Below the pieces are notes generated by a model. That model was not told the origin of the DNA and searched no databases. It saw nothing but the letters and a program-made list of their open reading frames with translations. Positions 4,872 through 56,528 of a stretch of DNA of 56,528 bases are shown one piece after another. The stretch covers positions 1 to 56,528 of the forward strand of contig JAHHTE010000001.1 in assembly GCA_020024815.1 (NCBI GenBank), read 5' to 3'. The translations under genes and the position numbers were made by a program. How positions within the stretch are numbered: the stretch's first letter is position 1; every line of letters starts with the position of its first letter. The DNA is from Mailhella sp. (GTDB taxonomy: Bacteria > Desulfobacterota > Desulfovibrionia > Desulfovibrionales > Desulfovibrionaceae).

Positions 4872-4876
4872 TATAC

Positions 4877-10252: not shown

Positions 10253-10253
10253 T

Positions 10254-26947: not shown

Positions 26948-26948
26948 T

Positions 26949-31773: not shown

Positions 31774-32532
31774 ATGAGAATATTATTAGCCCTTTTTATG
31801 TTTATGGTAATGCCCTTTACGGGCATTGCCCATGAATTTAGTTTTGATAATGTTAGTAAGAAGTATCCAATAGATAGTGAATATTTTGCGTTTAATGCTT
31901 CTCAAGAATTAAGCAAAAAATATTCAAAAGAACTTCCTAATATTATTCTTATTCCTGCTAAAGATAAAAAATTTACAGAAGCTCTTGAAGTTTTTCTTAT
32001 ACGTAGTGGTTTTACTATAAATGGCAATACTGATGGTCTCGTAATGAGTTATACGTTTGATTTTTTAGATAAAAATAGAGCCTATTTAAGACTTGAATTA
32101 TCTGACGGAAATCATATTGGTGTTGTAAGAAAATTAGGGGAAAATACGCCATTTTCTGCTCCTACAACAAAAGTATCAGAAGAAATTATTTCCGAAACTC
32201 CAACAAACGTAGAACAAACAAATGCAGTACAAGAAACACTTACAGAAATACAAAAAAGTCCATTATTAGCTACTCCAATAAAAACTACCCCAACATATTG
32301 GATATTAAAACAAGGTTCTTTAATGAATCAACTTGATGAATGGGCAAAAAAAGAATCATGGAAAGTAATTTGGCAAGCAAATTACGATCTAGACTTAAAT
32401 GCAGAAGCAAGTTTTTCTGGTGATTTTATTAATGTAGTAGAACAAGTATTCAATGCATTACCTAAAAAAAATAATGGGTTACGTATTAATATTTACAAAT
32501 CAAATAGAGTTATTGAAGTTATAGGGGAATAA
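31774..32532 (+). CDS. pilL: PilL-like protein: TrbH-like N-terminal domain plus TcpQ-like C-terminal domain
   Basis: C-terminal WILKQGSLMNQLDEWAKKESWKVIW...AEASFSGDF; first gene of the pil cluster. Confidence 0.75.
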   Translation: MRILLALFMFMVMPFTGIAHEFSFDNVSKKYPIDSEYFAFNASQELSKKYSKELPNIILIPAKDKKFTEALEVFLIRSGFTINGNTDGLVMSYTFDFLDKNRAYLRLELSDGNHIGVVRKLGENTPFSAPTTKVSEEIISETPTNVEQTNAVQETLTEIQKSPLLATPIKTTPTYWILKQGSLMNQLDEWAKKESWKVIWQANYDLDLNAEASFSGDFINVVEQVFNALPKKNNGLRINIYKSNRVIEVIGE

Positions 32533-32535
32533 ACT

Positions 32536-33960
32536 ATGAGGAATATTTTCTTATTATTTATTATAATTATGTTTTTACCTGCTTGCACAACAGTACAAAC
32601 ACATAATTTTAATAAACAAATTAATGAATATGAAAACATAGCAAAATCAAAAACAGTGCAAATTTTTGATAAACCTTATCTTGGATCAAAAATTAGGGAA
32701 TTAGACATAAGAAGTCCTCTTTTTGATAAAAAAGCTTTATTATCTCAAAGAGGTACAATGACAGAAATCGCTCAAAGCATTGAAATGCTTTTTCCGAGCA
32801 TGAGCTTCCAAGTAAATGGTTTTGATACGCAAAACTACAAAATTTTTTATGACGGCAATCTAAAAGGATTGCTTGATAGTATTTCAACGGTAACAGGTTA
32901 TGGTTGGACATTTGCAGATAATACCGTAACTTTTTCAAAAGTTATTTCAAAGACATATACTATTTATGCTATACCAGGAATAAATAGTTATACCAATACA
33001 CTCACCAATAAAAATAAATCAGAAAATAGTGCTTCAAGTAATGGTATTGGACAAACTATATCAAATGGGGATAGCTCTGCTGATACTGCTCAAACAATAA
33101 AAACAAGTTTTCAATATGATACTTTTAAAGAAATAGTAACGGATGTAAAAGGGTTATTGTCTTCAAAAGGAACAGTGACAGCTAATCAAGGTGCGGGAAC
33201 AATTACAATCCGTGATAGTGCGGATAAAATAAAACTTGTCGATGCTTATATTGGTGAAATCAATAAAAAGATGTCTCGACAAGTAGCAATTAATGTTCAA
33301 GTTTGGACATTAGATTTAAATGATGATTCAGAAGTTGGCTTTAATCTAAAAGCATTGTTTGAAAATGCAGATCTAAGTATTATAGCAGGTAATACCACAA
33401 GTTTAGCTAATAATATTACTGCAAGTATTGTATCAGGCAAACTTAAAGGCTCTAATGCTACATTAAGTGCATTGCGTGAGTACGGTAATGCTTCACAGCT
33501 TACGAGTGCTAGCGGAATTGTAATGAGTAATCAACCACTTCCAGCTCTTGCTGTTTCTAAAAATGCATATCTAGCAAGTATGTCAACTTCTGTAACAGAA
33601 TACGGACAAACAACAGATATTCAACCAGGCGAAGTTACAACTGGTTTTAGTATGACTGTTACCCCTCATATTCTTGAAAAAAGAGAAGTAATTTTACAAT
33701 ATAATGTTCATTTATCTTCTTTAGAAGAAATGCAACGCTATTCTTCTAAAGATATTACTGTTGATTTACCCCAAACAAATAATCGTTCTTTTAGGCAAAG
33801 AATGCGTATGAAAATGGGACAAACTCTTGTTTTAGCTGGCTATGCTCAAGAAATAAAAGCCAATAAAACACGTGGTGGTTTTTTATTTGGTGGGAAAAAT
33901 GGCAATGATAAAAAATCAATTTTGATTATCACAATTTCTGTGGAAGGAGCTGATGTATAA
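32536..33960 (+). CDS. pilN: Type IVb pilus secretin lipoprotein PilN
   Basis: LPAC lipobox; RQVAINVQV, VTTGFSMTVTPHIL, GQTLVLAGY. Confidence 0.9.
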   Translation: MRNIFLLFIIIMFLPACTTVQTHNFNKQINEYENIAKSKTVQIFDKPYLGSKIRELDIRSPLFDKKALLSQRGTMTEIAQSIEMLFPSMSFQVNGFDTQNYKIFYDGNLKGLLDSISTVTGYGWTFADNTVTFSKVISKTYTIYAIPGINSYTNTLTNKNKSENSASSNGIGQTISNGDSSADTAQTIKTSFQYDTFKEIVTDVKGLLSSKGTVTANQGAGTITIRDSADKIKLVDAYIGEINKKMSRQVAINVQVWTLDLNDDSEVGFNLKALFENADLSIIAGNTTSLANNITASIVSGKLKGSNATLSALREYGNASQLTSASGIVMSNQPLPALAVSKNAYLASMSTSVTEYGQTTDIQPGEVTTGFSMTVTPHILEKREVILQYNVHLSSLEEMQRYSSKDITVDLPQTNNRSFRQRMRMKMGQTLVLAGYAQEIKANKTRGGFLFGGKNGNDKKSILIITISVEGADV

Positions 33961-35189
33961 TGGCTCGTTTAATAAAAATTGATAAAACAATGTATGCTCT
34001 AGGGTTGAACTGGTATACATATACTTCAAAAAAGCAACTTCCAACAAAAGAAACCAAAACCTTTGACGTGGTTACATGGAACAAAGAACAGTTTGGTTAT
34101 GCTCTTACAGAAAAAAATGAAAAGTTTTTATCTGCTAAAAGTTTAGCAAATCTAATAAAAATAACGACTTCATATCTTGGAGTTTTTACTCTAAAGGATA
34201 TAGAAGATAATGAATTTTTTTGGATTTTTGCTACGCATGATGGAAAAATTCTAGGTATGGGAGATACCGTTTGTAATAGTCAAGAAGAAATAAAAGACGC
34301 TATAAAAACTATCACAGATTTTTCACCTATTCCTATTAATCCTATTTATTTTAAAACTGTTGATGAAAGTATTACTTTTATCAAAGCTAATATAACTTCT
34401 TCTAAATTTTCTAATACCATAAAACCGCTTTATAAAAGTAAACAAAAAGCAAAACAAAATAGAAATATTATGTTAATTGCTTTAGTTCTTATATGTGCTA
34501 GTTATGGTGTAATAAAATATTTAGATATTAAAAATATCCAAGAATTAAAAGAAGCTGCTCTTTTTTCAAAACAAACAACAGAAAATAAAATTAAAAATAT
34601 TTATGCAAATACACATAAATATTTTCCTATGGAGTGGAAACAAAATTATTTCCCTTTGGATATATATTCAGTTTGTAAACCAGCTCTTTTTTCATTGCCT
34701 ATTAATGTGAATGGTTGGGCTTTAGAAAAAGCAATTTGCACTCCAAAAGAAGTTAATTCTTATTGGAAACATCAAAACCAAGCAAGTTTTGTAGATTTGC
34801 CTTTTAATGGCGAACTTACCAAACCAAAAGAAGTTTTTTCACGGCATGAAATAGCAAATATAAAAAATACGCAAAATACCATTGAACATACAGCACTATT
34901 AACACAAGAAGAAGTTTCTAAACTTTTGTATCAAATAACCCAAAATATGGGAGCAAATTTATCATTATCTTTTAGTAAAAGTGCTGTGAAAGAATTTGAA
35001 GAATTAAAAATTTCTATTACTGCTCCTTTTAAACAAGGAAAATTTGAATGGAAAAGTGTACCTTCAAATCTAATTCTCAATTCATCGTTATTTAAAGCAT
35101 TGAATGCAATTCCAAGCTTAGCAGTTAAACAAATTGAATATAACAACGGACAATGGTCTATTAAAGGAGATTTATATGTTAAAGCATAA
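33960..35189 (+). CDS. pilO: Type IVb pilus accessory protein PilO
   Basis: YALGLNW start, central TM, GWALEKAIC; synteny. Confidence 0.8.
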   Translation: MARLIKIDKTMYALGLNWYTYTSKKQLPTKETKTFDVVTWNKEQFGYALTEKNEKFLSAKSLANLIKITTSYLGVFTLKDIEDNEFFWIFATHDGKILGMGDTVCNSQEEIKDAIKTITDFSPIPINPIYFKTVDESITFIKANITSSKFSNTIKPLYKSKQKAKQNRNIMLIALVLICASYGVIKYLDIKNIQELKEAALFSKQTTENKIKNIYANTHKYFPMEWKQNYFPLDIYSVCKPALFSLPINVNGWALEKAICTPKEVNSYWKHQNQASFVDLPFNGELTKPKEVFSRHEIANIKNTQNTIEHTALLTQEEVSKLLYQITQNMGANLSLSFSKSAVKEFEELKISITAPFKQGKFEWKSVPSNLILNSSLFKALNAIPSLAVKQIEYNNGQWSIKGDLYVKA

Positions 35190-35643
35190 AATAATCCTTA
35201 CTTCTTTCCTTTTATGCATAAGCAATATTAATATTGCAAATGCTAATTCCAATGCAACACTTGGATCAATTACTCAACAAAGAGGTATGTTAGAAGATTT
35301 GAGTTTACAGGTACAAATACAAGAACAAAGTCAAAAGTTGAATCAATTACTTATGCCTGTTGCTCCTATTATTCCTCAAAATACTAATGAACTTTCAGCA
35401 AAACAACTTATTGAAAAACTAGAAGTACCAGGAGCAACGAAAGAAAAAAATAGTGAAATAAAAGATGAAGATACAAGAACTTCAAAAGTTATTGCAATTT
35501 ATAGCAATAATAAAACACTAAAAGCAAAAGTAAAATATAAAGGTAAACTTGTTAATCTTACACATGGTCAAATCTGGAATGGGCTGAAAGTACAAATTTT
35601 TCGTGACCATGTATCCATCGGTAATAAAATTTTGGAGTTATAA
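35176..35643 (+). CDS. pilP: PilP-like protein
   Basis: Signal peptide, ATLGSI...coiled coil, C-terminal beta region; between pilO and pilQ. Confidence 0.65.
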   Translation: MLKHKIILTSFLLCISNINIANANSNATLGSITQQRGMLEDLSLQVQIQEQSQKLNQLLMPVAPIIPQNTNELSAKQLIEKLEVPGATKEKNSEIKDEDTRTSKVIAIYSNNKTLKAKVKYKGKLVNLTHGQIWNGLKVQIFRDHVSIGNKILEL

Positions 35644-37178
35644 TGATGTTTTTTAATCAACAAAAACAAAATTTTGAACCATTGAATTTAATACCTAGTA
35701 CATTGAAATCAAGTCTAGCTATTTCTGATAATGTATTATGTATTTCATCAGCTATAAAACATGATCCACTTGTCTTAGAATTATTGAATGATTTAAAATC
35801 ACGAAAAATTGTCGAAGAATATGCATTTTATAGTCCTGCAGAATTTCATGATAAGTATAGTCATTCAACATTATCTAAAATTGAAGTAAAGAATGAAATT
35901 CAAAATTTTGTAAAAGAGTTATTGCAAACAGCTTTTAATGAAAAAGCAAGTGATATCCATATCAAAGACATGGGTACACATGGTCTTATTCGATTTCGAA
36001 TAGATGGAATGCTTATAGACCATAAAATCTATAAAGCAGATTTTTGTAGGGCTGTTATTCGTGCAATATATGGTTCAATGATTCAAAGTGGTGATAGCCA
36101 ATTTTCTTATCGTGAAAGACAAGAAGGAAGAATTGTTAACGATAATTTTTTACCTAAAGGTATGTATTCTGTTCGGGTACATACAGAACCAACAGAAAAA
36201 AAAGATAGTCCTGAAGGTATTGGTTCTTGTATGTATTTGCGTCTGTTATATGACGCCACCAATGCAACAGGATCACTTGAAGAACGTTTAACTAGACTTG
36301 GTTTTCTTAATAACCAAATAGAAAGTATTCGTTATTTAACCACAAGAACAGGATTAAATATTTTATCAGGAGCAACAGGACACGGAAAATCAACAGCACT
36401 AAAACATATTATAGAAAGTATCAAAATTGAAAATCCTCAAAAAGCATTTATGTCAGTAGAAGATCCTCCTGAATTTCATTTAGAAGGGATAGACCAAATC
36501 GCTGTTAGTACAAAAAATGTTGAAAATCGTGGAATAGCCTATACTGACGCAATAGCAGGAGCAATGCGTTCTGATGTTGATTGTCTTTTAATTGGGGAAA
36601 TTCGTTATCTTGAAGCAACAAAAGCAGCAATTAATGGAGCTATGACGGGTCATGCGATATGGGGAACTTTACACGCTAGCGACGCTATTGGGATTATTTT
36701 ACGTATGATTACCATTTTAGAAGAAAAAGGTTCTTCTAACGCAATAAAACATATTTGTGAACCTAGTGTTATTTCAGGCTTAGAATATCAAAGACTTATT
36801 CCTATGCTATGCCCTCATTGCAGTAAAAGATTGCATGATGTGATTGATAGCTACAATGCAAATATGGCTGAAAAAATCAACAGAGCATTAAAAGCAGAAG
36901 ATGAAAATGTGCGTGTTATTGGGTCAGGCTGTGAATATTGCAATTATAAAGGGATAAAAGGACAACAAATTGCAGCTGAAGTAATTACAACAGACGTAGC
37001 ATTTCTTGATTATTTGAAACAAAACAAAATCACAAAAGCAAAAGAATATTGGATAAAAGAAAAAGGAGGAATAAGCCATGTGCAACACGCCCTAAAATAC
37101 GTAAAAGAAGGAAGAGCTGATCCATTTATTACGGAAGATAGACTTGGTTTACCGTTAGATTTTGAGGTAATATCATGA
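35643..37178 (+). CDS. pilQ: Type IVb pilus assembly ATPase PilQ
   Basis: ASDIHI, RFRIDG, GATGHGKST, VEDPPE, IGEIR, TGHAIWGTLHA. Confidence 0.93.
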   Translation: MMFFNQQKQNFEPLNLIPSTLKSSLAISDNVLCISSAIKHDPLVLELLNDLKSRKIVEEYAFYSPAEFHDKYSHSTLSKIEVKNEIQNFVKELLQTAFNEKASDIHIKDMGTHGLIRFRIDGMLIDHKIYKADFCRAVIRAIYGSMIQSGDSQFSYRERQEGRIVNDNFLPKGMYSVRVHTEPTEKKDSPEGIGSCMYLRLLYDATNATGSLEERLTRLGFLNNQIESIRYLTTRTGLNILSGATGHGKSTALKHIIESIKIENPQKAFMSVEDPPEFHLEGIDQIAVSTKNVENRGIAYTDAIAGAMRSDVDCLLIGEIRYLEATKAAINGAMTGHAIWGTLHASDAIGIILRMITILEEKGSSNAIKHICEPSVISGLEYQRLIPMLCPHCSKRLHDVIDSYNANMAEKINRALKAEDENVRVIGSGCEYCNYKGIKGQQIAAEVITTDVAFLDYLKQNKITKAKEYWIKEKGGISHVQHALKYVKEGRADPFITEDRLGLPLDFEVIS

Positions 37179-38209
37179 TAAAATACCTTCTTATATCATT
37201 CTCTTTTAATAATCACTTACGCAAAAAGATTTGGAAAAGAATTGCAACTCAACTAAAATACAATGTTCCGTTAATTCTTATATTTGAAAATTTGAGGGAA
37301 CAATATAAAAAAAATAATATATTATATTCTATCTTTTCAGATGCTTACAATGAATATAGTAAAGCAGAAAAATTATCAAAATCATTAGGAAAATACATTC
37401 CATATGATGAAATGCTTTTGATTGAAAGTTGTGAAAGTAATGGAAAACTTGATGAAGGTTTTCTCTTAGCTGAACGTATTATTGAAGCTAAGGATAATAT
37501 TAAAAATTCACTAAAATCAGCATTAACATATCCAATATTTTTATTTTTCTTGCTTATTATTATGCTTTTAGTTGTTGCTTTTATGTTAATTCCTGCTTTT
37601 ACAGAAGTTAATGATCCAAGTAAATGGCAAGGTTTTGCTAAAATATTATACTATGTATCTATATTTATTAGCTCTATTTATGGATTATTGTTTGGTATTT
37701 TTTTCGCCTTTGCAATAAGTATGATGTTTTTTTCTTTTCCTAATTATACAGGGAAATATAGAACATTTTTAGATAAAATACCGCCGTATTCCATTTATAG
37801 AATGTTAGTAGGCTCAACATGGCTTTTTACTTTTTCTAGTCTTATGAAAGCAGGTAAACAACAAAACGATATACTAAAAGATATGGCAGAATCAGATATT
37901 AACACACCATATCTTCGTAGTAGAGTACAAATTATTTTAGATAATTTTATTGGAAAAAATCTTGGTGAAGCTCTTATTTTATCAGAAACAGGATTTCCTG
38001 ATGAAGAACTTATAAGAGATTTAAATACTTACTCTAATTTACCAGAATTTGAACAAAAACTTTATGAAATTTCTGAAGATTGGATCAAGTATGGGGAGCA
38101 AAAACTCAATGAAAATGCAAAAGTTTTTCAAAACATTTGTTTAATGTTTATAGCTTTAATACTTATATCAATTGGCTTAGCTTATACACAAATTATGCAA
38201 GCATTTTAA
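37175..38209 (+). CDS. pilR: Inner-membrane platform protein PilR (GspF family)
   Basis: SALTYP, LDKIPPYSIYR...GSTWL, TGFPDEELI. Confidence 0.88.
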   Translation: MIKYLLISFSFNNHLRKKIWKRIATQLKYNVPLILIFENLREQYKKNNILYSIFSDAYNEYSKAEKLSKSLGKYIPYDEMLLIESCESNGKLDEGFLLAERIIEAKDNIKNSLKSALTYPIFLFFLLIIMLLVVAFMLIPAFTEVNDPSKWQGFAKILYYVSIFISSIYGLLFGIFFAFAISMMFFSFPNYTGKYRTFLDKIPPYSIYRMLVGSTWLFTFSSLMKAGKQQNDILKDMAESDINTPYLRSRVQIILDNFIGKNLGEALILSETGFPDEELIRDLNTYSNLPEFEQKLYEISEDWIKYGEQKLNENAKVFQNICLMFIALILISIGLAYTQIMQAF

Positions 38210-38221
38210 GGAGAAATAACT

Positions 38222-38740
38222 ATGAAAAAACTTTTATTTAGAAAAAGCAAAGCAGCTTTAGAGGGCTTAAGTTCACAGGCTTTAGGAGCAATAATTGGAA
38301 TTATTGCTATTGTAGGATTAGTATATTTATATAACGATACATCATCAAAAAATGATGTTATATCACTAAAAGAAGGTCTATTACATTTAAATGCAGAAAT
38401 TAATGCATTATTTAATGGACAAACAGGCTATGAAGATTTAACAAATGATATTGTTCTTGAAGCCCAAATTGTTCCTAGTGATTTACGAAAAGGAAAAAAA
38501 ATAATTAATCCTTTTGGTGGTGAAATTAATCTTTATCCAAGTGGAGATGGATCTAGTTTCTTTATAGAAGTAACTGAAATTCCTGATAAAGAATGCATTC
38601 AATTAACAAGTGATCAAAATAGCTCTTGGAAAAGTATAACTGTAAATAATACTAAATTATCTAAAGATAAATCTTCTGTTGAGACAATAAATCTCTGCAC
38701 AAATTCTAATAATAATACTCTAAAATATGAATCTAGGTAA
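38222..38740 (+). CDS. pilS: Type IVb major prepilin PilS
   Basis: N-terminal hydrophobic helix, INPFGGEI, IPDKECIQL and second Cys near the C-terminus. Confidence 0.85.
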   Translation: MKKLLFRKSKAALEGLSSQALGAIIGIIAIVGLVYLYNDTSSKNDVISLKEGLLHLNAEINALFNGQTGYEDLTNDIVLEAQIVPSDLRKGKKIINPFGGEINLYPSGDGSSFFIEVTEIPDKECIQLTSDQNSSWKSITVNNTKLSKDKSSVETINLCTNSNNNTLKYESR

Positions 38741-38745
38741 TTAGT

Positions 38746-39171
38746 ATGAGAATGTTTGCTTTTTTAGCTTTAGGTATAATGCTTCTATCTCTTTATTCTT
38801 TTCCAAAAGAAAAGAATAGTACAGTGGAAGTGCAAGCCATGAATTTTCTTATGTATAGGGATAATGTACGCAATTATGTTTTTAAACTTGATAAAATTAT
38901 TCCTGGAGTAATTTCTGATAAAGATATTGAATTTCCTATTGGTTTTATAAACAAAAAATGGAAAGCTCAAATTGAGAAAAATATTTTATATATCTATGGT
39001 AATGCAACGCAACAAGAAATTAACCAAGTAAAAAAGCAAACACTCTATTCTCATAGTGTGGGTCAAAAAAAGAATGGTCTTTTTTACCCACACTATACTA
39101 AACCTCCAATGGTTTTACCAAACTTTATAAAAGAAGGTGATCTTGTAAGTATTGTGGAGATTGTAGAATGA
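38746..39171 (+). CDS. pilM: PilM-like protein
   Basis: AMNFLMYRDNVRNY, C-terminal LPNFIKEGDLV. Confidence 0.7.
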   Translation: MRMFAFLALGIMLLSLYSFPKEKNSTVEVQAMNFLMYRDNVRNYVFKLDKIIPGVISDKDIEFPIGFINKKWKAQIEKNILYIYGNATQQEINQVKKQTLYSHSVGQKKNGLFYPHYTKPPMVLPNFIKEGDLVSIVEIVE

Positions 39172-40286
39172 GAAAAAGTAAAGCTGAAGGTTTAACTAGT
39201 GTTATGCTTGGATTAATCATTTTATTTGTATTGTTACCGACTATTATCAATCAAATAAATGAGGGATTACTTTATATTCGCAAAAAAGGTGCAAGCAACC
39301 ATTTAAATACTGTAAATATTGCTGTCGGCGAATATATTAAACTTCACCATGCAAAACTTCTTGAAACAACAACTAACACAAAAGGTGTTACTATAACTAT
39401 TCAAGATTTAAAAAAAGATGAACTACTTCCAGAGGGTTTTTCAGAAAAAAATACTTTTCAACAAGGATATAAAGCTTATATTCGTCAGCCTAAAAAAAAT
39501 GAATTACAAGGAATTACACTTACAGAAAGTAATGGAAAAAATTATGACAAAAAATTTATAAATAGCATAATTCCAAGTACAGCAAGTTTATTAGGTGGTG
39601 CTGGTGGATTTGTTCCAAGTGGCGATTTGCCTAATGAATCATCTAATATGATTATAGGTAGTTATGGTTCTTGGAAAATAGAACTTCAAAAATTTGGAAT
39701 ACCTTCGCCAGGTGCAGGACATTTAGCAGCACTTGCTACTTTTGGCAGTAGTGCTTTAGGACTAGATTTTTTATATCGAGTAGCAGTTCCTGGCGAACCA
39801 GAACTTAATGCCATGCAAACAAATTTAGACATGACGGATCACGATATAAACAATCTTAGAAGTATTCAATTAACTTCTCATACTTTTGATGAATTTGTGT
39901 GTACTGATGTTAAAAATGAAAATAGATTATTTTATGACGAAAAAGAAGGAATGTATATTTGTAGGCAAGGTCAAGCTGTTACAATCAATGATACAGGCAA
40001 TAGTATTATGATAAAAAATACAACCATTGCAAGCAATGGTGAATTTATTGAAAAACCTATTTGCCCTTCAGGAACAAACACAAAACCCTATATTTTTACT
40101 TCCCCAAGCATTGTTTCATCAGGAGAAGAAGCTGTTCATTTAGCTTCGTTTCAAACATGGGCTACTGATGTTGATGACACAAAATGGCAAGTCCATCTTC
40201 GTGTTTTAAATAAAAGAGAAGAATGGATTTATCCTGACCCTAATTACAATAAAATGACAGTTATTACACTATGCGGAACTACATAA
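39168..40286 (+). CDS. pilV: PilV-like minor pilin/adhesin (Shufflon_N domain)
   Basis: LPEGFSEKNTFQQGY, GGAGGFV, GHLA, DFLYRVAVPGEPELNAMQTNLDM. Confidence 0.88.
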   Translation: MRKSKAEGLTSVMLGLIILFVLLPTIINQINEGLLYIRKKGASNHLNTVNIAVGEYIKLHHAKLLETTTNTKGVTITIQDLKKDELLPEGFSEKNTFQQGYKAYIRQPKKNELQGITLTESNGKNYDKKFINSIIPSTASLLGGAGGFVPSGDLPNESSNMIIGSYGSWKIELQKFGIPSPGAGHLAALATFGSSALGLDFLYRVAVPGEPELNAMQTNLDMTDHDINNLRSIQLTSHTFDEFVCTDVKNENRLFYDEKEGMYICRQGQAVTINDTGNSIMIKNTTIASNGEFIEKPICPSGTNTKPYIFTSPSIVSSGEEAVHLASFQTWATDVDDTKWQVHLRVLNKREEWIYPDPNYNKMTVITLCGTT

Positions 40287-40771
40287 TTATTACTTTTTTA
40301 TTAATAGTTTTAACTCCATATCAAGCAAAAGCTCAAGTAAAACTTGAGGATTTTATGTTTGCTAGCAAGCATTATAACGTTGCTCCAGAACTTCTTATTG
40401 CTATTGCTCGTACTGAAACAAATTTACACGTTTGGGCAGTAAATGTGCAAGGAAAAGGATATTTTCCTAAAAACAAAGAAGAAGCTCTAAAAATAGCAAA
40501 AAAAGCTTATAACGAACGTAAAAGCTTTGATATTGGAATTATGCAAATTAATGTATGGTGGCTTAGAAAATATAATATTTCCCTTGAAACAGCTATTGAA
40601 CCTAAAAATAACATCATTATTGGTGCATTTATTTTGAAAAACGAAATACTCCGACATGGCTTTAATTGGAAAGCCATTGCAAGCTATCATACTCCAGTTC
40701 ATCGTAACCCTATGCGTGGTAAATATTATGCGTCAAGAGTTATAAAAAATCTTCGAGGAAAAAATGATTAA
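40271..40771 (+). CDS. pilT: Lytic transglycosylase (PilT/TrbN-like)
   Basis: LLIAIARTET, SFDIGIMQIN, AIASYH. Confidence 0.9.
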   Translation: MRNYIIITFLLIVLTPYQAKAQVKLEDFMFASKHYNVAPELLIAIARTETNLHVWAVNVQGKGYFPKNKEEALKIAKKAYNERKSFDIGIMQINVWWLRKYNISLETAIEPKNNIIIGAFILKNEILRHGFNWKAIASYHTPVHRNPMRGKYYASRVIKNLRGKND

Positions 40772-41210
40772 TTTTATAATCTTATTAATTATTTTGATTG
40801 GGTTATCCTATCAAGATCTAAAAGAACATAAAATTTATGATATTATTCCACTTTTTGGAATAGTCATTGGTATAAGTTTAGGCTTTTTTTATAATGATAC
40901 TATAATATCAGCTTGTTATACTATGCTTTTTGGTTTTTTTATTCTTTTTATTCCTTATCTTCTAATTCGTTTTTTAAAAAAACAAGAAGGTATTGGATTT
41001 GGTGATGTGCTTGTTAGTGCTTGTATAGGAGCATTTCTCTCTTTTAATGAAACATATCTTGCAATAATGATTGGATTTTTATCAGCTTTTGTTTTTTGTT
41101 ATTTTATTAAGAAAAACAAAATAGCTCTTGTTCCATTTTTTACCTTTGGAGTAATTCTTACAAAGATTTTAGGAGGTTTTTATGAAATTAATATGTTTAA
41201 TTTTGCTTAA
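40764..41210 (+). CDS. pilU: A24 prepilin peptidase
   Basis: DLKEHKIYD and GIGFGDV aspartate motifs; multi-TM. Confidence 0.88.
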   Translation: MINFIILLIILIGLSYQDLKEHKIYDIIPLFGIVIGISLGFFYNDTIISACYTMLFGFFILFIPYLLIRFLKKQEGIGFGDVLVSACIGAFLSFNETYLAIMIGFLSAFVFCYFIKKNKIALVPFFTFGVILTKILGGFYEINMFNFA

Positions 41211-41736
41211 TATTTTTTTCATTTGTGGAAAAGCACAAGCTTTTACTATACTTGACGCTACTAGCTTTGACCCACAACCAGTTAAAGTAGAAGCAAAAAA
41301 TAATTCTGTTCCAATCGGTACAGTAATAGTATGGACCAAAAATGAAATTCCAGACGGTTGGTTAGAATGCAATGGGCAAGCTGTTAATCACGATTTGTTT
41401 CCTGAACTTTCTATGTTAATGAAAAATGTTCCTGATTATAGAAATAGATTTTTACAAGGGACAAACAACGGAATAGTCGGTGAAAAACTAGAAGCAGGAC
41501 TTCCTAATATAACAGGAAGTTATGACAGTTGGAACAATGGGTTTTCGGCTGGTCTTATTACAGAAGGAGCATTTAAAAATACAAAAACAAGTCGATATAT
41601 TGCAGCAGACATAGCAAGCTTTGGCTTTGGAGTAAATGTTCAGTTTGATGCTTCATTATCTAATTCTATTTATGGAAGTTCTAATACAGTTCAACCACCA
41701 GCAATAACAGTAAAATACATCATAAAAGCAGAATAG
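41182..41736 (+). CDS. Secreted phage tail-collar/tail-fibre-tip domain protein 1
   Basis: Sec signal (AQA); VPIGTVIVW...PDGWLECNGQ...PDYRNRFLQG collar motif; GLPNITG...TVQPPAITVKYIIKA tail. Confidence 0.85.
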   Translation: MKLICLILLNIFFICGKAQAFTILDATSFDPQPVKVEAKNNSVPIGTVIVWTKNEIPDGWLECNGQAVNHDLFPELSMLMKNVPDYRNRFLQGTNNGIVGEKLEAGLPNITGSYDSWNNGFSAGLITEGAFKNTKTSRYIAADIASFGFGVNVQFDASLSNSIYGSSNTVQPPAITVKYIIKAE

Positions 41737-41746
41737 GAGTAATAAA

Positions 41747-42320
41747 ATGAAAAAGAAACTTTTTTGGGCGTCGCTCATATATATATATATATAGCGTAAC
41801 ACCCCAAAATGCTTATGCAATCAAAGATGCAACAAGTTTTAATCCAGAACCAGTTAAAGTAGAAGCAAAAAATAATTCTGTTCCAATCGGAACTGTTATT
41901 GTATGGACCAAAAATGAAATTCCAGAAGGTTGGCTTGAATGTAATGGACAAGCAGTCAATCAAGATTTATATCCAGATTTATTTGCTCTTATGAACAAAA
42001 CACCAAACTATCAAGGATATTTTTTGCGTGGACTTGGTGGAAATAGTGAAAAATTAGGAATTGAACAACAAAATGCAATGCTAGACTTAACTGAAGGAGT
42101 AATTAATGGACCAGTTATGCTTAATGGATTTGGAAATACTGATGGAGCAACAGGAGTTTTTAGTGCAGTTCCTAATAAAACAGCATGGGCAATTAAATAT
42201 GAGTTTGGTTGGACAAATGCAACAAGTATAAAGTTTGATATTCAAAATGCAGGAATTCCTGTTGCTAATGAAATAAGACCAATAAATAAGGCAGTAAAAT
42301 ACATTATAAAAGCAGAATAG
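41747..42320 (+). pseudogene. Secreted tail-collar domain protein 2, frameshifted in an (AT)8A tract (candidate phase-OFF state)
   Basis: ATG 41747 reads to TAG at 41792; the frame from 41793 (SVTPQNAYA|IKDATSF...VKYIIKAE) is intact to 42320. Confidence 0.85.
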
Positions 42321-42330
42321 GAGTAATAAA

Positions 42331-42582
42331 ATGAATATAAAACCAAAAGAAACATTTGAAAATCGTGCTATATATCAAAACAAAGTAGAAGAAAACCATT
42401 GTCCCAATTGTGATGAACCGCTTATTTTTGGTTTAAAAGATAACTACCATGAGTTTTCAATAGGGCTGTCAACTGTATTACAGCTTCTTTTGGTTGCAGA
42501 AAAACAAGGATATGTTCCAAAACTGCCCAGTGAATGGATTGTACAGGTTTTAAATGAATTTTACATGGTAAAAAGGGAGTAA
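42331..42582 (+). CDS. Hypothetical protein (83 aa)
   Basis: AGGAG RBS; contains CPNC. Confidence 0.75.
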   Translation: MNIKPKETFENRAIYQNKVEENHCPNCDEPLIFGLKDNYHEFSIGLSTVLQLLLVAEKQGYVPKLPSEWIVQVLNEFYMVKRE

Positions 42583-42584
42583 TT

Positions 42585-43472
42585 ATGGATTGTTATAAGA
42601 CAATGAATTCTGATAAAATTTATAAAATATCAGTTGAGAACTATCAAAAAGATCCTGGTTTTAATGAGCCGTATTTTATTAATAATATTTGCTATGCGTT
42701 ATGCCCTGCTTGTAATAACCCAATTCAGCTTTGTGCATTGTATAATAGAAATGAAAACTCTCCTAAACCGTATGGCAGACATACAGGAAAAGACATCGCT
42801 GATCTTGCTTCGTTTGATTATCAAAAATATAATTTTTGTCCGTATGCTTCTCATGCAAAAGGGTATAATAATTATGATGAACTGATAAAAGACGACATTG
42901 ATAATTCAGTAATAGAAGCATTGGAAGCATTACGGGATAATTTTGATAAGGTTATTTACTTATTAAAAAAAGAAAGCGGAATAAAAATAAGTAATAATTT
43001 AGCTAAAGAAATGCTTGTTTCATTTTTGGGTAATGGCAATGAAAATGCTGGGTATTTGTTTTATTACTTTAATAAGACAAATTTTCCTTATGTTTTTGCT
43101 AATATGAGCAAAGATTTTTCATTAAGAGGACAATATATCAAACAAGAATTTCCCTTATACAATATATTACAAAAAAGAGGTATAAAATTTTCAAAAGACG
43201 GACAATATATTGCTTCTATGAAAGAAAACCCTAAATTGTATGTTTTTAGTTTCATTCATTACAATATTGAAACAATAGATGGAGATACCCATGAAACTGT
43301 AAAATTTTGTGTTTTTGACGAGCAACGAAATATTATTTTTGAAAAGAAAATTATAGTTGATTTGGCGTATATTAATAATCTTATAAAAATGGAAAATTTT
43401 CAACGCAATGAGGAGCTACTTGATATTGCAAAGGCATTAATTAATAACAGATTGGAACAATTACAAAGATAA
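42585..43472 (+). CDS. Hypothetical protein with N-terminal Cys/His zinc-binding-like motif
   Basis: ALCPACNNPIQL...PYGRH...FCPY; GGGAG RBS. Confidence 0.8.
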   Translation: MDCYKTMNSDKIYKISVENYQKDPGFNEPYFINNICYALCPACNNPIQLCALYNRNENSPKPYGRHTGKDIADLASFDYQKYNFCPYASHAKGYNNYDELIKDDIDNSVIEALEALRDNFDKVIYLLKKESGIKISNNLAKEMLVSFLGNGNENAGYLFYYFNKTNFPYVFANMSKDFSLRGQYIKQEFPLYNILQKRGIKFSKDGQYIASMKENPKLYVFSFIHYNIETIDGDTHETVKFCVFDEQRNIIFEKKIIVDLAYINNLIKMENFQRNEELLDIAKALINNRLEQLQR

Positions 43473-43476
43473 AATA

Positions 43477-43497
43477 GAGGGCATTTTTAATGCCCTC
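43477..43497. terminator. Hairpin between convergent genes
   Basis: GAGGGCATT/AATGCCCTC stem. Confidence 0.5.
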
Positions 43498-43762
43498 CGT
43501 AAATTTTACTTCTGTGTCCTATATCAACAACCAAAATGAGAATTTCATCATCATGGATTTCGCATAAAATTCTATAATCTCCGACCCGAAACCGCCATAT
43601 TTCCGAATATGCGTCACCGATAAGGGCTTTTGCCAAGGTTCTCGGATTTTCTGATGGTTGGACTCTTTTCCGTAAAAAAGCCAAAATCCGTTTAGCTTCG
43701 GCTGTTCCAAGTTTTTTGAGCTTTTTTTCAGCCGAAGGCACAAATTTAATTGTCCATGCCAT
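43487..43762 (-). CDS. relE: RelE/ParE family toxin
   Basis: WRFRVGDYRILCEIHD...VDIGHR motif. Confidence 0.92.
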   Translation of the reverse strand: MAWTIKFVPSAEKKLKKLGTAEAKRILAFLRKRVQPSENPRTLAKALIGDAYSEIWRFRVGDYRILCEIHDDEILILVVDIGHRSKIYGGH

Positions 43763-43970
43763 AATCACTCAAAACCTTTTCAAGAGGAATTGCTTTTTCA
43801 CCACTGCTTTTAAAATCTGTCAGCGTTTTTTGAGCCAAATAATAATCTTCCAAATCTTCAATTTGATTTAAAATTGCTTCACGAGCATAAAAAGTTTTTG
43901 TTCTACCCGTTTCTTTAGCTAAAAAATCAAGCCGTTGTTCTATTTCTGCAGGTAAGCGTATTGCTAACAT
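43746..43970 (-). CDS. relB: RelB-type (RHH) antitoxin
   Basis: MLAIRLPAEIEQRLDFLAKETGRTKTFYAREAI...EDLEDYYLA; AAGGAG RBS; upstream of and overlapping the toxin. Confidence 0.88.
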   Translation of the reverse strand: MLAIRLPAEIEQRLDFLAKETGRTKTFYAREAILNQIEDLEDYYLAQKTLTDFKSSGEKAIPLEKVLSDYGMDN

Positions 43971-44040
43971 AAAATAATCTCCTTTTGTTATACTTGTATA
44001 GCAAATTATAATATATGTCAAATTTCCAAATAGGCAATTT

Positions 44041-44153
44041 TGTAAAAAGGTATACCTTTTTACACAAAACATATCGCTAGATTTCACCTATTGGAAAAAG
44101 GTCTATAAAAAGTAAAAATACATTTTTATAAAAAAGTTATTGACCTTTTTCCA
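44041..44153. promoter_or_regulatory. Palindromic operator-like array
   Basis: Perfect 24-bp palindrome 44041-44064 plus inverted repeat 44092-44103/44142-44153; all share the AAAAAGGT half-site. Confidence 0.55.
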
Positions 44154-44185
44154 GTTTCTATATAACTTATAATCAAGGACATTGT

Positions 44186-47100
44186 ATGCCAAAGAAAAAA
44201 ACACGTCCTACGGGGCAACATAGTCTATTAGATTTTATACCTGATTGTATTGAAAATCTTAGACAAGAAAACGAAAAAGAAGAAGCATATTCAAGAAGTA
44301 TGCTATTAGAAAATCAAACAATAACCAATAAGGAGAATGAACATGAGTATAGAGAGCAATATGTCAGCGGGTCAAATAGCACTACGAATAATGGATATAA
44401 AAATTTATCGATGGCTAGCATACGAAATGGGAATGTTAGGATCAACAACAGCAATGAAAATCTTGGACAGATGGGCATTGAACAATCCAGAGAAATTAAA
44501 AGAACTAGAGAAAAAACGGAATGGGACAGAACTATATTTAAAGTTGACGGAACAGGAGGAGAAAGAAATGGAAGCAATAGAAACAGACAGATATTGGGAT
44601 TTGATAGACAGTGGAATGAGTCATTGGGAAGCATTGAAAATGTTAGGGGTACAGACAGAATTATAGAAACCTATATTATCACTGATAGTGATAATATAGG
44701 TATTGGTACTCCAAAACAAAAGTACCAGGACAATATTAATGCTTTAAAAGTTCTATATAATCTTAGAAAAAATAAGTCTGAACTTGCAACAAAAGAAGAA
44801 CAAGCTATTCTTGTCAAATATGTTGGTTGGGGTGGACTTCCTCAAGCCTTTGATGAAAATAATGAACAATGGCAAAATGAATATAAAGAACTTAAAGCAT
44901 TACTTACAGAAGAAGATTATTCTAATGCTAGACGTTCCACGCAAGACGCCCATTTTACGCCTAAAAATATCATTGATACTATGTATCAAGGTTTGAAACA
45001 ATTTGGAGTAAAAAATACAGTACATATTTTAGAACCATCAGCAGGAATAGGTAATTTTATTGGATTTAAACCACAAAATTTTGATGCTAAATTTACAACT
45101 ATTGAACAAGATACTATTTCTGCTGATATTCTAAATTATCTTTACCCTAAGGAAAAAATATTTTGTAGACCATTTCAAGACATTCCCCAAAAAAATCCTC
45201 ATTTTGATGTAACCATTGGTAATCCACCTTTTGGACAAACAAGACTTTATGATAAAAATTTTCCAGAATTAGATTTTTCAATACATAATTATTTTATTGC
45301 TAAGTCTATGGAATTAGTAAAAGAAGGTGGTCTTGGAGCTTTTGTTGTTAGTCGTTATTTTATGGATAGTGTAAATAATGAACATAGACAATATCTAGCA
45401 CAAAATTCTCACTTTTTAGGAGCAATACGTTTACCTAATACTGCTTTTAAACAAAATGCTCTTACAGAAGTTACAACGGATATAGTCTTTTTTCAAAAGA
45501 AAACCGAGTATGAAAAACAAAATAATATTAGTAAAGGATATACTGATTGGGTACATACAACCGAGAAAGAATTTGAGCATAAAATAAATGTTACTTTTTT
45601 AGATAAGCCAATTCCTACAATAACAAAAACAGCAACAATTAATAAGTATTTTGCTGATAATTCTAAACAAGTTTTAGGTAATTTAGAATTAGGTGGAAAA
45701 TTTGGTAATGAATTAAATTGTATTGGTACTGCTGAAAAAGATATTAATATTGCAATGCAAGAAGCATTGCAAATACTTCCTAAAAATATTTTTAACAATA
45801 CTATTACCTATGAAAACCCATTTGCAGTTAAAGAATATACAGAACTTGAAAAACGTATTCTTAATTCTGAACGATTTAAAAAATTAAAAAAAGATTCTTT
45901 AATCGAAAGTACCAATGGTAAAATTTATAAAAAAACACAAGATGAACTTGGCGAAGATATATTATTAGAAGTTCCACTTGCTCACAAAAATGATGTACAA
46001 CGTATAACTGGTTTAATTCAAATTCGTGATACCTTAAGAACTTTATTTGAATTAGAAAAAAGTCCAGAAAATAATGAAGTTGATATTGAACGTTATCGTA
46101 AACGATTAAATATAAGTTATGATAATTTTGTAAATAAATTTGGACTATTAAATTCAAGTAAAAATAGGATTGTTTTTAAAGAAGATCCAGAAGCAACACT
46201 TATTCAAGCTCTTGAAGTTGACTATGATAAAGGCATAACAAAAAGTGAAGCAATAAAAGAAGATGTTGAAGAAAGAAAAGCAAGTGCAAAAAAAGCAAGC
46301 ATTTTTTCTAAACGGTGCTTTTACTTTATTGAACCAGCTAAGACAGCTGAAACTTCTAAAGAAGGTTTGCTTATTTCTTTACGAGAAAGTGGATCTATTG
46401 ATTTTGAAAGAATATCGCAACTAGTAGGAAAATCAGAACAAGAAGTAAAACAAGAGTTATTGGGAACATTTGTTTTTAAAAATCCATATACACAAAAATA
46501 TGAAGTTGCTGATAAATATCTTACTGGAAATATACGCAAAAAACTTGAGCAAGCAAAAAAAGCTGTTGCAATGAACCCACAATATCAACTCAATATTGAA
46601 GCTCTTGAAAAAGCCATGCCAAAAGATATTGAAGCAGCTGATATTAGTGTTCGTTTTGGCTCTACATGGATACCAGAAAAAGATGTAAAACAATTTATTA
46701 CAGAAGTAATAAGTGAAATAGCATTTTATAATGATGAAGTACATTATATCCCTGAAGTAGGACGATGGACAGTAAGTATCAACTTGCTTAATAGTTCTGC
46801 TAATAACTATATTTTTGGTACAGAAGAATATCCTGCAAGTAGGATTATCAAATCATTACTTGAAAATACACAAATAAAAGTAATGAAAGATACAGGCGAA
46901 AAAGATAGTAATGATAAGCCAATAAAAATTCTTGATACAGAAGCTACTGCTGCTGCAATGGAAAAAGCTGAAAAAATACAAGACGCTTTCCAAAAATGGA
47001 TATGGAGCGATGAAGAAAGACGTAATCGTTTAGCAAAAATTTATAATGAAAAATTTAATACACATGTTCCCGTACAATATGACGGAAGCCATGTTGAATT

Positions 47101-49825: not shown

Positions 49826-50380
49826 ATGGCTAATGTTGGTTATATTAGAGTAAGCACCACTGACCAAGAAACAGGAAGACAACTTGATAAAGTTGTTCTT
49901 GATAAGGTTTTTGAAGAAAAAATAAGTTCTGCAACACCTAATAGACCAATATTAGCCGAATGTTTAAACTACCTTCGTGAAGGTGATATTTTCTATATTC
50001 ACTCCATAGATAGACTGGCTAGAAATTTGATAGAATTACAAAATATTGTTAGCTCATTGGTAGATAAAGGAGTAGAAGTACGCTTTTACACGGAAAACTT
50101 GACCTTTTCAAAAGGTTCTTCCCCAATGCAAGAACTCATGCTCCAGGTACTTGGTGCGTTCGCCCAATTTGAACGTAAACTCATCAGAGAACGCCAACAA
50201 GAAGGCATAAATAATGCCAAGAAACAAGGAAAATATTTAGGCAGACCTAAGAAACTTTCCGATGAAGACAAAAAACTTATTCTTGAAATGTATAACGACG
50301 GCTGTACTCCAAGCTTTATTGCGAATAAATTTGATGTATCAATTTCTTCAGTATATAAGATAATAAAATATAAATTATAA
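49826..50380 (+). CDS. Serine recombinase (resolvase/invertase family)
   Basis: VGYIRVST, SIDRLARN, FAQFERKLIRERQQEG, GRPKKL, C-terminal HTH. Confidence 0.95.
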   Translation: MANVGYIRVSTTDQETGRQLDKVVLDKVFEEKISSATPNRPILAECLNYLREGDIFYIHSIDRLARNLIELQNIVSSLVDKGVEVRFYTENLTFSKGSSPMQELMLQVLGAFAQFERKLIRERQQEGINNAKKQGKYLGRPKKLSDEDKKLILEMYNDGCTPSFIANKFDVSISSVYKIIKYKL

Positions 50381-54909: not shown

Positions 54910-55173
54910 TTAATGTGTAACAGCTTGCTCTAATACCAAACGTATATAACGTGTATAAGGTATTCCTTCTGCTTTTGCTTTTACTTTTACAGCCGTTAAA
55001 AGTTGTTTAGGTAAACGCATATTTATTGTTGCTTCTTTTGGTTCAAATTCAAAATTAGCAGTTGTAAATGTTGATAGATCATATTTAGATAAATCAGCAG
55101 TATCTACAAAATATTCAGCTTCTTCATCACTTTCAAAAGAAGGCATTGCTTTAAGATTGAGTTCTTTTTTCAT
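54910..55173 (-). CDS. brnA: BrnA/CopG family antitoxin
   Basis: PSFESDEEAEYF...INMRLPKQLL...GIPYTRYIR. Confidence 0.85.
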   Translation of the reverse strand: MKKELNLKAMPSFESDEEAEYFVDTADLSKYDLSTFTTANFEFEPKEATINMRLPKQLLTAVKVKAKAEGIPYTRYIRLVLEQAVTH

Positions 55174-55447
55174 AATGCTTAATCTCCTTTTCATGCATAT
55201 ATCTTGCACTGATTGGACGTATAAAAGTTTTATTGTCAATTTCACGAAAAGTAAAAACTAAAAAAATATATCTACCCACAGCTGTTTTACCAATAACCCT
55301 TATTCGTGCTTCATAAGGAAAGGGATCAGTCATTATATGTGGGGAAAATAAAAATATTTCCTCTATCTCTTCTTTGGTTACGCCATGCTTATTGCACTTA
55401 GGCCAATTTCCTTTATCCCAGTCAAAACCTGAAACTTTAAAATTCAT
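55151..55447 (-). CDS. brnT: BrnT family toxin
   Basis: FDWDKGN...KHGV...IRPISAR. Confidence 0.92.
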   Translation of the reverse strand: MNFKVSGFDWDKGNWPKCNKHGVTKEEIEEIFLFSPHIMTDPFPYEARIRVIGKTAVGRYIFLVFTFREIDNKTFIRPISARYMHEKEIKHYEKRTQS

Positions 55448-55539: not shown

Positions 55540-56400
55540 CTAAATATGATTATTTTGTGTATTAGTTAAAAGTGTAACGGCATACCTGTTCTGATTGGGG
55601 GCTAAGTGAGCATATCTCATGGTCATTTTTAAATCTTTATGACCTAATAGATTGCCCACAACCAATAAAGGAACTCCTTTTTGAACCAACCAAGATGCAA
55701 AAGTATGCCGTAATGTATGAAAAACAACTTTATTTCGGCGGTCAACAATATTTTGATTCAATGACGTTTTCTTAATTGTTTCACGAAATATTTTTGATAC
55801 CTGTAAAATTTGTTTTTCAGAAAAAAGATATTGCATTTGCTTTTTGTAATATTTTACAACAATTTTAAATGCAATATCATTAAGTGGAATTATCCTAGTT
55901 ACATTATTTTTAGTCTCAAATAATGTAATTGTTTTTTGTTCCCAATTTATATTTGTTGACTGCAATGAGAATATCTCACCTGCACGCATTCCAGTATGAA
56001 GAGCGAATAAGGTAATGTCATACCAAAGTTCATTTTTGTTGTGGAGTGCATCCAATAACAAGTCAGCTTCAGCTTGACTTAAAAATCTGACTCGAGCATT
56101 GTTTGTTATTGGCATTTCGAAGTGTGGAAGTTGTATTGACAATAAATCTAATTGAATAGCTCTATTTACAGACCGTCTCAATAATGACAAACAATGTTTA
56201 ATAGATTGTTGACTCAAGTTAGTTTTTGAAAGATATTGTCGATACTTAATTATATCTTTGGCACACAATGTATCAAAATCCTTATTACACCAATAAGGAT
56301 AAATATGACGATTATATCGTTGAATTTCTTTTTTGATACTGTTTGGTTTAAATTCCTTTGTGCCTAGATACAATTCCCATATTTCGTTAATTGTAACCAT
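55540..56400 (-). CDS. int: Tyrosine recombinase/integrase
   Basis: TGMRAGE, FHTLRHTFASW, LLGH...MTMRYAH; adjacent to attR. Confidence 0.95.
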   Translation of the reverse strand: MVTINEIWELYLGTKEFKPNSIKKEIQRYNRHIYPYWCNKDFDTLCAKDIIKYRQYLSKTNLSQQSIKHCLSLLRRSVNRAIQLDLLSIQLPHFEMPITNNARVRFLSQAEADLLLDALHNKNELWYDITLFALHTGMRAGEIFSLQSTNINWEQKTITLFETKNNVTRIIPLNDIAFKIVVKYYKKQMQYLFSEKQILQVSKIFRETIKKTSLNQNIVDRRNKVVFHTLRHTFASWLVQKGVPLLVVGNLLGHKDLKMTMRYAHLAPNQNRYAVTLLTNTQNNHI

Positions 56401-56462: not shown

Positions 56463-56528
56463 AGGACAGCGGTCTTTCACGCCGTCAACAGGGGTTCAAA
56501 TCCCCTTGGAGACGCCAAAATTAAAAAT
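56463..56528 (+). repeat. attR (3' fragment of tRNA-Glu)
   Basis: 65/66 identity to 6318-6383; may extend beyond the window. Confidence 0.95.

Follow-up and report, generated by a model that had tools for sequence, protein, structure and literature searches.

An integrative conjugative element (ICE) of Mailhella sp. carries, at the 3' end of its type IVb pilus (pil) operon, two tandem genes encoding homologues of phage tail-fibre tips. The element lies in a stretch of 56,528 nucleotides (contig JAHHTE010000001.1, assembly GCA_020024815.1), hereafter called the window, and positions are those of this stretch (Table 1). We are highly confident of the identity and gene context of the two proteins, collar paralogs A (colA) and B: they are tail-fibre-tip homologues composed of a collar domain and a variable head, without a shaft. 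On balance we favour the view that these tips dock in trans on the tip of the pilus and set the choice of recipient, and that tandem cassettes and a dinucleotide-repeat switch diversify them. Docking on the minor pilin PilV and the role in recipient choice are argued by analogy and held with moderate confidence. Recipient choice by conjugative pili is understood for few enterobacterial plasmids, where it works through a shuffled PilV tail. What is new here is the occurrence of free-standing, leader-bearing tail-fibre tips tied to a conjugative type IVb pilus, a probable TA-repeat switch in the leader codons of one of them, and shufflons acting on the same gene in relatives. An earlier sequence-only reading of this DNA had called such an arrangement possibly undescribed; the core idea was partly anticipated, as the repurposing of a tail-collar domain for recipient specificity has been published for a form fused to PilV (PMC9881135).

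Tail-fibre tips in a conjugative pilus locus

The sequence-only reading had placed two tandem paralogs directly after pilU, and this was confirmed. Both contain the Collar domain PF07484 (E 9.3e-9 for A and 1.3e-10 for B; 35.6 and 41.5 bits, the Pfam cut-off being 24), and the proteins are 46% identical (81/176, E 2e-43). The proposed homology to tail-fibre tips was borne out by Pfam, profile and fold matches alike. Searched against the PDB, a profile of the family aligned along the full length of the mature protein with phage fibres of known structure: a short tail fibre (9cuy, E 1.6e-28), the T4 gp37 tip and T4 gp12 (2xgf, 1ocy). The AlphaFold model of A (mean pLDDT 73.5) gave tail-fibre tips as its best PDB fold matches (9nxk, 2xgf, 5iv5 and 1ocy, with probabilities of 0.93-0.99), and it had 57 matches at E<=1e-3 in BFVD, a library of viral structures; all named entries among the 50 listed were tail-fibre, baseplate or collar proteins. 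P1-like plasmids were among the matches to paralog A.

The part of a phage fibre that forms the shaft or attaches to the baseplate is absent, the mature chain starting about 25 residues before the collar domain. The genes are not among phage tail genes either, their neighbours being pil and ICE genes. A prophage remnant was ruled out, since the ICE holds no phage genes except for one Rha-type regulator domain. Neither A nor B has PF04917, i.e. they are not type IV prepilins, and the Shufflon_N domain resides in the separate PilV; the fold search with the collar model gave no match to CofJ or TcpF. A search of plasmid DNA with 39168-43472 returned merely 8 Enterococcus records over 83 nt, which are irrelevant.

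The sequence-only reading also held that both paralogs are exported. Sec-type leaders were indeed recognised by a home-made heuristic combining hydrophobicity with an A-x-A motif; paralog B, however, is not intact, its frame being shifted at an AT tract in the leader codons. Lipoprotein identity was ruled out by the lack of a conserved Cys at the cleavage site in relatives. Downstream of the leader lies a conserved peptide with the core DATSF-x-P, of which D25, T27, S28, F29 and P31 were invariant in 23 aligned sequences of the collar family. Residues 21-40 of the A model had a mean pLDDT of 48-54, i.e. low confidence. Among the homologues (the 120 best of 827 proteins at E<=1e-3), the motif was present in 34, all short and leader-bearing, and was lacking from the first 60 residues of the other 86, which were fibre-type proteins or fragments.

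We then compared gene neighbourhoods in species-representative genomes, where 106 candidate stretches were collected, 88 confirmed and the best 80 kept. A locus was termed exported-type if its collar gene encoded a hydrophobic leader followed by the motif, and fibre-type in all other cases. Pil markers were found in 26 of the 47 exported-type loci, with pil genes within 10 kb and often directly adjacent; 13 loci had ICE markers alone and 8 had neither, seven of these eight being on loci of at most 10.3 kb. The 33 fibre-type loci comprised 30 with neither kind of marker, one with ICE markers alone and two with pil markers, which look like misses of the heuristic. The earlier question of whether homologues are linked to pil operons was answered positively, with pil or ICE markers in 39/47 exported-type against 3/33 fibre-type loci.

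The carriers are mainly Desulfovibrionaceae (Mailhella, Desulfovibrio and Bilophila), with one to three collar copies per locus. The collar gene is directly 3' of pilU in loci L001-L004 and of pilV in L043, L048 and L050, and follows a prepilin peptidase gene in Bilophila wadsworthia ATCC 49260 (L024). A profile search of 1.84 billion representative sequences gave 25,734 proteins at E<=1e-3, of which 134 reached E<=1e-30. A strict exported-type test was passed by 44 of the best 150 representatives, and at least 12 more short ones among these had an obvious leader and a variant motif. A quick tree of the 60-residue collar core (115 rows) showed three changes between exported and fibre types and did not reject a single exported clade (p-AU 0.19); it is too weak to give the number of domestication events.

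Tandem cassettes, an AT tract and inversion arrays

The DNA identity between the paralogs reported earlier (41278-41318 and 41850-41890) is real and slightly longer, forming an exact repeat of 43 nt (41276-41318 = 41848-41890); a second exact repeat measures 26 nt (41329-41354 = 41901-41926). In 100 shuffles, the longest matches averaged 9.6 nt and did not exceed 12. Divergent middles between common ends, as had been described, were likewise found. The N-modules of A and B are 74% identical, the middles diverge, and the common 3' part, the D2 junction, spans the end of the reading frame, the stop codon, the ribosome-binding site and the next ATG. The claim that the two heads represent different tip types stands insofar as they belong to two sequence subclasses, and neither tip appears in the match list of the other; both proteins nevertheless match the same myophage tail-fibre genes at ~35% identity. 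The tip of A is as near to phage-type fibres (~50%) as to most other members of the family.

All four combinations of leader type and tip class occurred. Locus L001, which is 96-98% identical to the window over the aligned stretches flanking the cassette, lacks cassette B, with a gap exactly between the 52-nt junction repeats. This indicates that cassettes are gained and lost by recombination between those ends.

The second cassette is OFF in the window, which we state with high confidence. Translation from the ATG of B at 41747 would end after 15 codons, at a stop (41792) that falls within an (AT)8.5 tract. This was the sole period-2 array among the 58 TRF rows for the window, and an AT run of 17 nt was seen in 0/100 dinucleotide-preserving shuffles of the window. 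In the window together with the 80 related loci, tracts of (AT)>=6 numbered three in total, all at the same position in the leader: in B, in the second collar copy of L003 and in L005. The L005 tract is in frame (ON) and the gene encodes an intact protein of 200 residues. The L003 copy is out of frame (OFF), with a stop after 29 codons; in both OFF copies the frame 3' of the tract is open.

Read in frame, the tract encodes an Ile-Tyr repeat (IYIYIY) in the hydrophobic core of the leader. Such a repeat was present in the leaders of 10 of the 34 short leader-bearing proteins (42-78% identical to A) and in none of the 86 other homologues. The leaders of P0003 and P0015 are nearly that of B, differing at one residue, with a repeat that is one Ile/Tyr step longer. 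Four open reading frame (ORF) calls (P0009, P0011, P0019 and P0039) begin just past the tract or in another frame upstream, and these starts look like gene-caller output as expected from OFF alleles. Conservation of the tract in relatives suggests that B is switched off rather than dead, and our confidence that the tract reflects phase variation and not decay is fairly high, judging from these sequences. The tract was limited to the low-G+C lineage: the closest loci, labelled Mailhella (L001-L005), have 30-39% G+C, and the more distant Desulfovibrio and Bilophila loci 50-62%.

The sequence-only reading had described a short PilV with no shufflon repeats or recombinase gene beside it, and this holds. 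PilV is 372 residues long with Shufflon_N as its one domain, no shufflon-like inverted repeats were found in 38000-44200 of the window, and no recombinase gene adjoins the collar genes, the nearest being at 49826 and 55540. The serine recombinase encoded at the former position was ruled out as an inverter of the tips, as no inverted repeats surround the collar genes. Variation in the window rests on tandem cassettes and a probable TA-repeat ON/OFF switch, with no inversion system.

The further suggestion of an alternative to the shufflon is too simple in view of related loci. Among the 47 exported-type loci, 11 had one full collar gene followed by C-terminal-only cassettes on either strand. 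The array of L038 comprises four or more inverted cassettes behind the collar gene, with a tyrosine recombinase gene downstream, and the inverted repeats begin near codon 85, the point at which A and B cease to be alike. Homologues of the L038 recombinase adjoin the arrays of L023 (69% identical), L016 (50%) and L024 (44%), and the tip that L023 expresses is 88% identical to one of the inverted cassettes that are silent in L038. The arrays of L012, L028, L030 and L037 reach contig ends or nearly so. As read from these sequences, a shufflon-like inversion array thus acts on a free-standing, non-pilin collar gene in Desulfovibrio and Bilophila. This pattern of variation points to the tip as the specificity part.

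Our literature search found one relevant report on a collar domain and a type IV pilus, the paper on the fused form. It found nothing on shufflons in Bilophila, nothing on this topic by title in Desulfovibrio, and nothing linking PF07484 to a pilus. The main text of that paper makes no mention of Bilophila, Mailhella, Desulfovibrio or K. oxytoca; 'tail fiber protein' is an enriched annotation of its predicted inversion targets, and 'tail fiber protein', 'prepilin peptidase' and 'site-specific integrase' are enriched among the neighbours of such targets (PMC9881135). The Desulfovibrio and Bilophila arrays may sit unrecognised in its supplementary tables. Labels such as 'phage tail protein' or 'tail fiber protein' are an annotation trap, through which inversion arrays may pass as prophage features.

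Proposed docking on PilV and role in recipient choice

The PilV of the window consists of the constant region alone, without a variable C-terminal extension, and PilV was uniformly short across the family (22 ORFs, 362-412 residues). The PilV model (pLDDT 76.7) had five PDB fold matches at E<=1e-3, each of them TcpB or CofB, and among these were structures determined together with the N-terminal peptide of TcpF or of CofJ. The next match was the C-terminal half of TcpB; TM-scores over the whole chain were low (0.18-0.20). In the TcpF/TcpB and CofJ/CofB pairs, an operon-encoded, Sec-exported protein docks on a trimeric minor pilin by means of a flexible peptide at its N-terminus, in which an aromatic residue is critical, and is then carried on the pilus tip through the secretin (PMC6048534, PMC9565799).

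A second line of evidence comes from fusions. The K. oxytoca plasmid NZ_CP069944.1 (L081) encodes a PilV of 488 residues made up of Shufflon_N and Collar, whose collar segment is 46% identical to A; inverted repeats of 19-21 nt, resembling sfx sites, lie just before the collar domain, and an integrase gene adjoins. The end of the window PilV corresponds approximately to the end of the constant part of this fusion. A single collar-like place was detected in L081 (5979-7233), although its shufflon region has further repeat-bounded segments, and the collar tip may alternate there with non-collar PilV tails in one shufflon. A PilV-collar fusion has also been described in Pectobacterium brasiliense (CP084655.1), and the phage domain was proposed to have been co-opted there for recipient specificity (Milman et al. 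2023, PMC9881135). The P. brasiliense and K. oxytoca fusions combine the same modules as the window, PF04917 and PF07484, in a type IVb pil cluster. Their tip forms one chain with the pilin and is switched by inversion at repeats just upstream of the collar domain; here it has a gene of its own, a Sec leader and a family-specific N-terminal peptide, and the TA-repeat switch replaces the inversion system.

Comparison with other systems places the locus between several of them. The shufflons of IncI1 and IncI2 plasmids (R64, TP114) share with it a thin type IVb pilus beside a type IV secretion system (T4SS) and multi-cassette variation (PMC12282955). In these plasmids Rci selects the C-terminal segments of PilV, and the minor-pilin tip determines the recipient (PMC12282955, PMC9045228); the variable segments of classical PilV reportedly share no homology with the collar domain (PMC9881135). 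Unlike in IncI, PilV of the window has no variable part, and in the relatives it is a gene other than a pilin gene on which the inversion array acts. Alternation of tail-fibre tips is also known from phages Mu (G segment, Gin) and P1 (C segment, Cin), where it changes receptor specificity (PMC12282955). Their tips belong to shafted phage fibres and are inverted by serine invertases, whereas the collar proteins are shaft-less and leader-bearing, are carried by a conjugative element and, in relatives, are accompanied by a tyrosine recombinase. The switch resembles that of outer-membrane adhesin genes of H. pylori, where a 5' dinucleotide tract (CT repeats in oipA) sets the frame (PMC10564699). 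Unlike in oipA, the repeat is AT, gives Ile-Tyr within the hydrophobic leader core and resides on a mobile element, and its switching is deduced here from sequence.

With the TcpF-TcpB pair of the V. cholerae toxin-coregulated pilus and the CofJ-CofB pair of enterotoxigenic Escherichia coli CFA/III, the locus shares a leader-bearing protein encoded in a type IVb operon and a minor pilin of the TcpB/CofB fold. The globular parts of TcpF and CofJ are unrelated to the collar proteins, and their systems serve colonisation of a host, not conjugation. Neither system is known to vary by cassettes or phase.

We propose the following mechanism. Both genes would encode small, Sec-exported, probably trimeric proteins, each a receptor-binding tip without a fibre shaft. 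By analogy with TcpF/TcpB and CofJ/CofB, the conserved flexible peptide with its DATSF-x-P core would hook the tip protein onto the PilV trimer in the periplasm, and the tip protein would leave via the PilN secretin, borne at the end of the type IVb pilus of the ICE. The variable head would then bind a surface structure of potential recipients and so select the cells captured for conjugation, PilV being the constant part alone and the specificity part being provided in trans. Conserved 5' and 3' modules around each cassette would allow recombination to add, delete and exchange tips, and slippage of the (AT)n tract in the leader of the second cassette would toggle B, so that in the state sequenced here tip A alone would be made. 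In related elements the free-standing gene would be diversified by a shufflon-like array with its own tyrosine recombinase, and in Enterobacterales the collar module would be fused to PilV and shuffled there.

Several observations weigh against this proposal. Fold TM-scores of the A model were just 0.24-0.33, and the PDB fold matches overall (0.18-0.33) rest on ranking and probability; low values are expected for single chains of intertwined trimers or of multi-domain proteins. Export, pilus association, trimerisation, docking on PilV, binding and the role in recipient choice are all inferred. The closest relatives include no PilV-collar fusions, since PF04917 was present in none of the 120 listed longer homologues and none of the 42 long representatives scanned. 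Many Desulfovibrio loci have the collar gene after a topoisomerase gene, several kb from pilV and pilT, and in L005 it lies inside the T4SS operon (10001-10573), right after virB4 and not beside pil genes. The L005 gene is on the same contig as L004, and the tract-less copy of the same element, after pilU, is ~24 kb away. These positions suggest that the link is to the conjugation module as a whole. The array of L021 has no recombinase homologue within 9 kb. Finally, all three genomic AT tracts are 17 nt long, and polymorphism in tract length is deduced from protein sequences of relatives alone.

Part of this evidence bears on explanations other than docked recipient-binding tips. The collar proteins might be soluble cargo secreted through the type IVb pilus in the manner of TcpF, serving aggregation, biofilm formation or attachment to mucosa. 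The PilV model folds like TcpB and CofB, whose partners are secreted colonisation factors, and the conserved N-terminal peptide would then function as a secretion signal. We regard this as unlikely, for the ICE to which the pilus belongs also encodes a complete T4SS, a relaxase and a coupling protein, fused PilV-collar forms exist in shufflon loci of conjugative-type pil clusters, and tail-fibre tips such as T4 gp12 and gp37 bind bacterial surface structures. The position of the L005 gene, and the many loci with the collar gene beside topoisomerase or primase genes and not pilV, would suit a role in mating-pair formation independent of PilV, on the T4SS pilus or on the donor surface. We give this little credence in view of the proximity of pil genes in 26 of the 47 exported-type loci, the existence of the covalent fusion, and the N-terminal motif that the L005 copy retains in common with the pil-adjacent copies.

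It is similarly improbable that paralog B is a dead gene or an assembly error, with no switching role for the AT tract. The frameshift of B and the equal length of the three tracts would agree with such a reading, but the frame 3' of the tract stays open for 176 codons, L003 and L005 have the tract at the same place in the leader, and the Ile-Tyr repeat is present in 10 of the 34 leader-bearing proteins. The absence of such a run from all shuffles and the four displaced ORF calls expected of OFF alleles argue in the same direction. A function in defence or exclusion, for example masking of receptors against phages or redundant conjugation by phage-derived cargo, seems very improbable to us. 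The collar proteins are receptor-binding modules and the ICE has further cargo of the anti-restriction and toxin-antitoxin kinds; the vicinity holds no other phage structural genes, however, the placement in or beside pil genes and the family-specific N-terminal peptide are conserved, and diversification of the shufflon type is typical of adhesins that face varied targets.

If docked tips do set recipient choice, a mating pilus can owe its specificity to a separate protein that is exchangeable and of phage origin, shufflons are not confined to pilin genes, and a simple repeat switch can gate the tip on display. This would offer a handle for predicting the recipients of elements in the gut and would tie together the evolution of phage and plasmid host range. 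A wider reading, possible though tentative, is that widespread conjugative elements arm their type IVb pilus with free-standing trimeric phage tips, docked via the peptide and drawn from the phage-fibre pool, with three interchangeable modes of diversification: tandem cassettes with a dinucleotide switch, a shufflon on a non-pilin gene, and fusion to PilV. Within the 150 best representatives, the proposed class would account for at least ~55 clusters formed at 50% identity. Phage and conjugation host ranges in gut Desulfovibrionaceae would then evolve through shared parts.

The element and its other genes

The G+C content of the whole window is ~30% and even throughout. Ordinary chromosomal genes fill bases 1-6000. 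The 3' part of the tRNA-Glu gene is duplicated at 56474-56528 as a direct repeat, exact over at least 40 nt and reaching the end of the window; the left-hand copy lies within 6296-6385, and these repeats delimit an ICE of ~50 kb. The complete element appears to be contained in the window, since the tyrosine integrase gene adjoins the right-hand repeat. Its T4SS genes are of the VirB type and comprise VirB11, B2, B3, B4, B6, B8, B9 and B10 with a VirD4-type coupling protein. The ICE further encodes a TraF-like peptidase, an ArdC-primase fusion, topoisomerase III, the type IVb pil operon, a large SNF2/methylase protein, a small serine recombinase, a relaxase with NikA and the tyrosine integrase.

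Table 1. Positions of the collar genes, their parts and other features discussed in the text
Feature	Position	Strand	Remarks
Collar paralog A (colA)	41182..41736	+	184 aa, intact; directly follows pilU, start overlapping the pilU end by 29 nt
Sec-type leader of A	41182..41241	+	residues 1-20, ending A-Q-A; from sequence, heuristic and alignment of relatives
Conserved N-terminal peptide of mature A	41242..41316	+	residues 21-45, core DATSF-x-P; candidate PilV-docking peptide
Paralog B, whole gene	41747-42320	+	frameshifted in signal-peptide codons
Paralog B leader	41747..41794	+	ATG, 15 codons, stop inside repeat; OFF state
Paralog B collar reading frame	41790..42320	+	176 codons, no internal stop; +1 relative to the ATG of B
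(AT)8.5 dinucleotide tract	41777..41793	.	17 nt; candidate slipped-strand switch
Conserved 5' module, cassette A (direct repeat D1)	41239..41426	+	188 nt, 79% identical to 41811-41998
Conserved 5' module, cassette B (direct repeat D1)	41811..41998	+
Conserved 3' junction, cassette A (repeat D2)	41708..41759	+	52 nt, 92% identical to 42292-42343; L001 junction inside
Conserved 3' junction, cassette B (repeat D2)	42292..42343	+
Type IVb pilus operon	31774..41210	+	11 ORFs, a Pfam match for every ORF; gene order same in L001-L004
PilV minor pilin	39168..40286	+	372 aa; Shufflon_N (PF04917) E 2.3e-25, no other domain
pilU	40764-41210	+	Peptidase_A24
Two downstream ORFs	42331..43472	+	83 aa (Cys-x2-Cys motif) and 295 aa; apparently same transcription unit as the collar cassettes
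Terminator-like hairpin closing the operon	43476..43498		readable on both strands
SNF2/Eco57I-methylase protein	44186-49813		1875 aa
Serine recombinase	49826-50380		184 aa, Resolvase and HTH_7, size of a Hin/Gin-type invertase; directly after the SNF2/Eco57I-methylase gene
tRNA-Glu gene	6296-6372
Tyrosine integrase	55540-56400	minus	adjoins the right-hand tRNA-Glu repeat

The pil operon encodes a PilL/TcpQ-like protein, the secretin PilN, PilO, PilP, the ATPase PilQ, PilR, the major pilin PilS, PilM, PilV, the transglycosylase PilT and the prepilin peptidase PilU. NCBIfam held no family for paralogs A and B, PilV, PilM or the two ORFs downstream of the collar genes. No convincing terminator was found upstream of 43476 after the start of the collar genes. 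The 83-aa and 295-aa ORFs had no leader and no Pfam match above the cut-off, and they are kept in L001-L004, L020 and L024.

Other cargo was noted in passing. The ArdC-primase gene (26907-29603) encodes an 898-aa fusion of an ArdC N-terminal domain, a zincin-like peptidase, two DUF5710 repeats and a Toprim primase domain, and its homologues served as ICE markers in many related loci. A gene for a ParE-family toxin and an upstream partner ORF lie on the minus strand at 43487-44087, just past the terminator-like hairpin of the operon. A gene for a CopG-type antitoxin, also on the minus strand, lies at 54910-55245, close to the integrase end.

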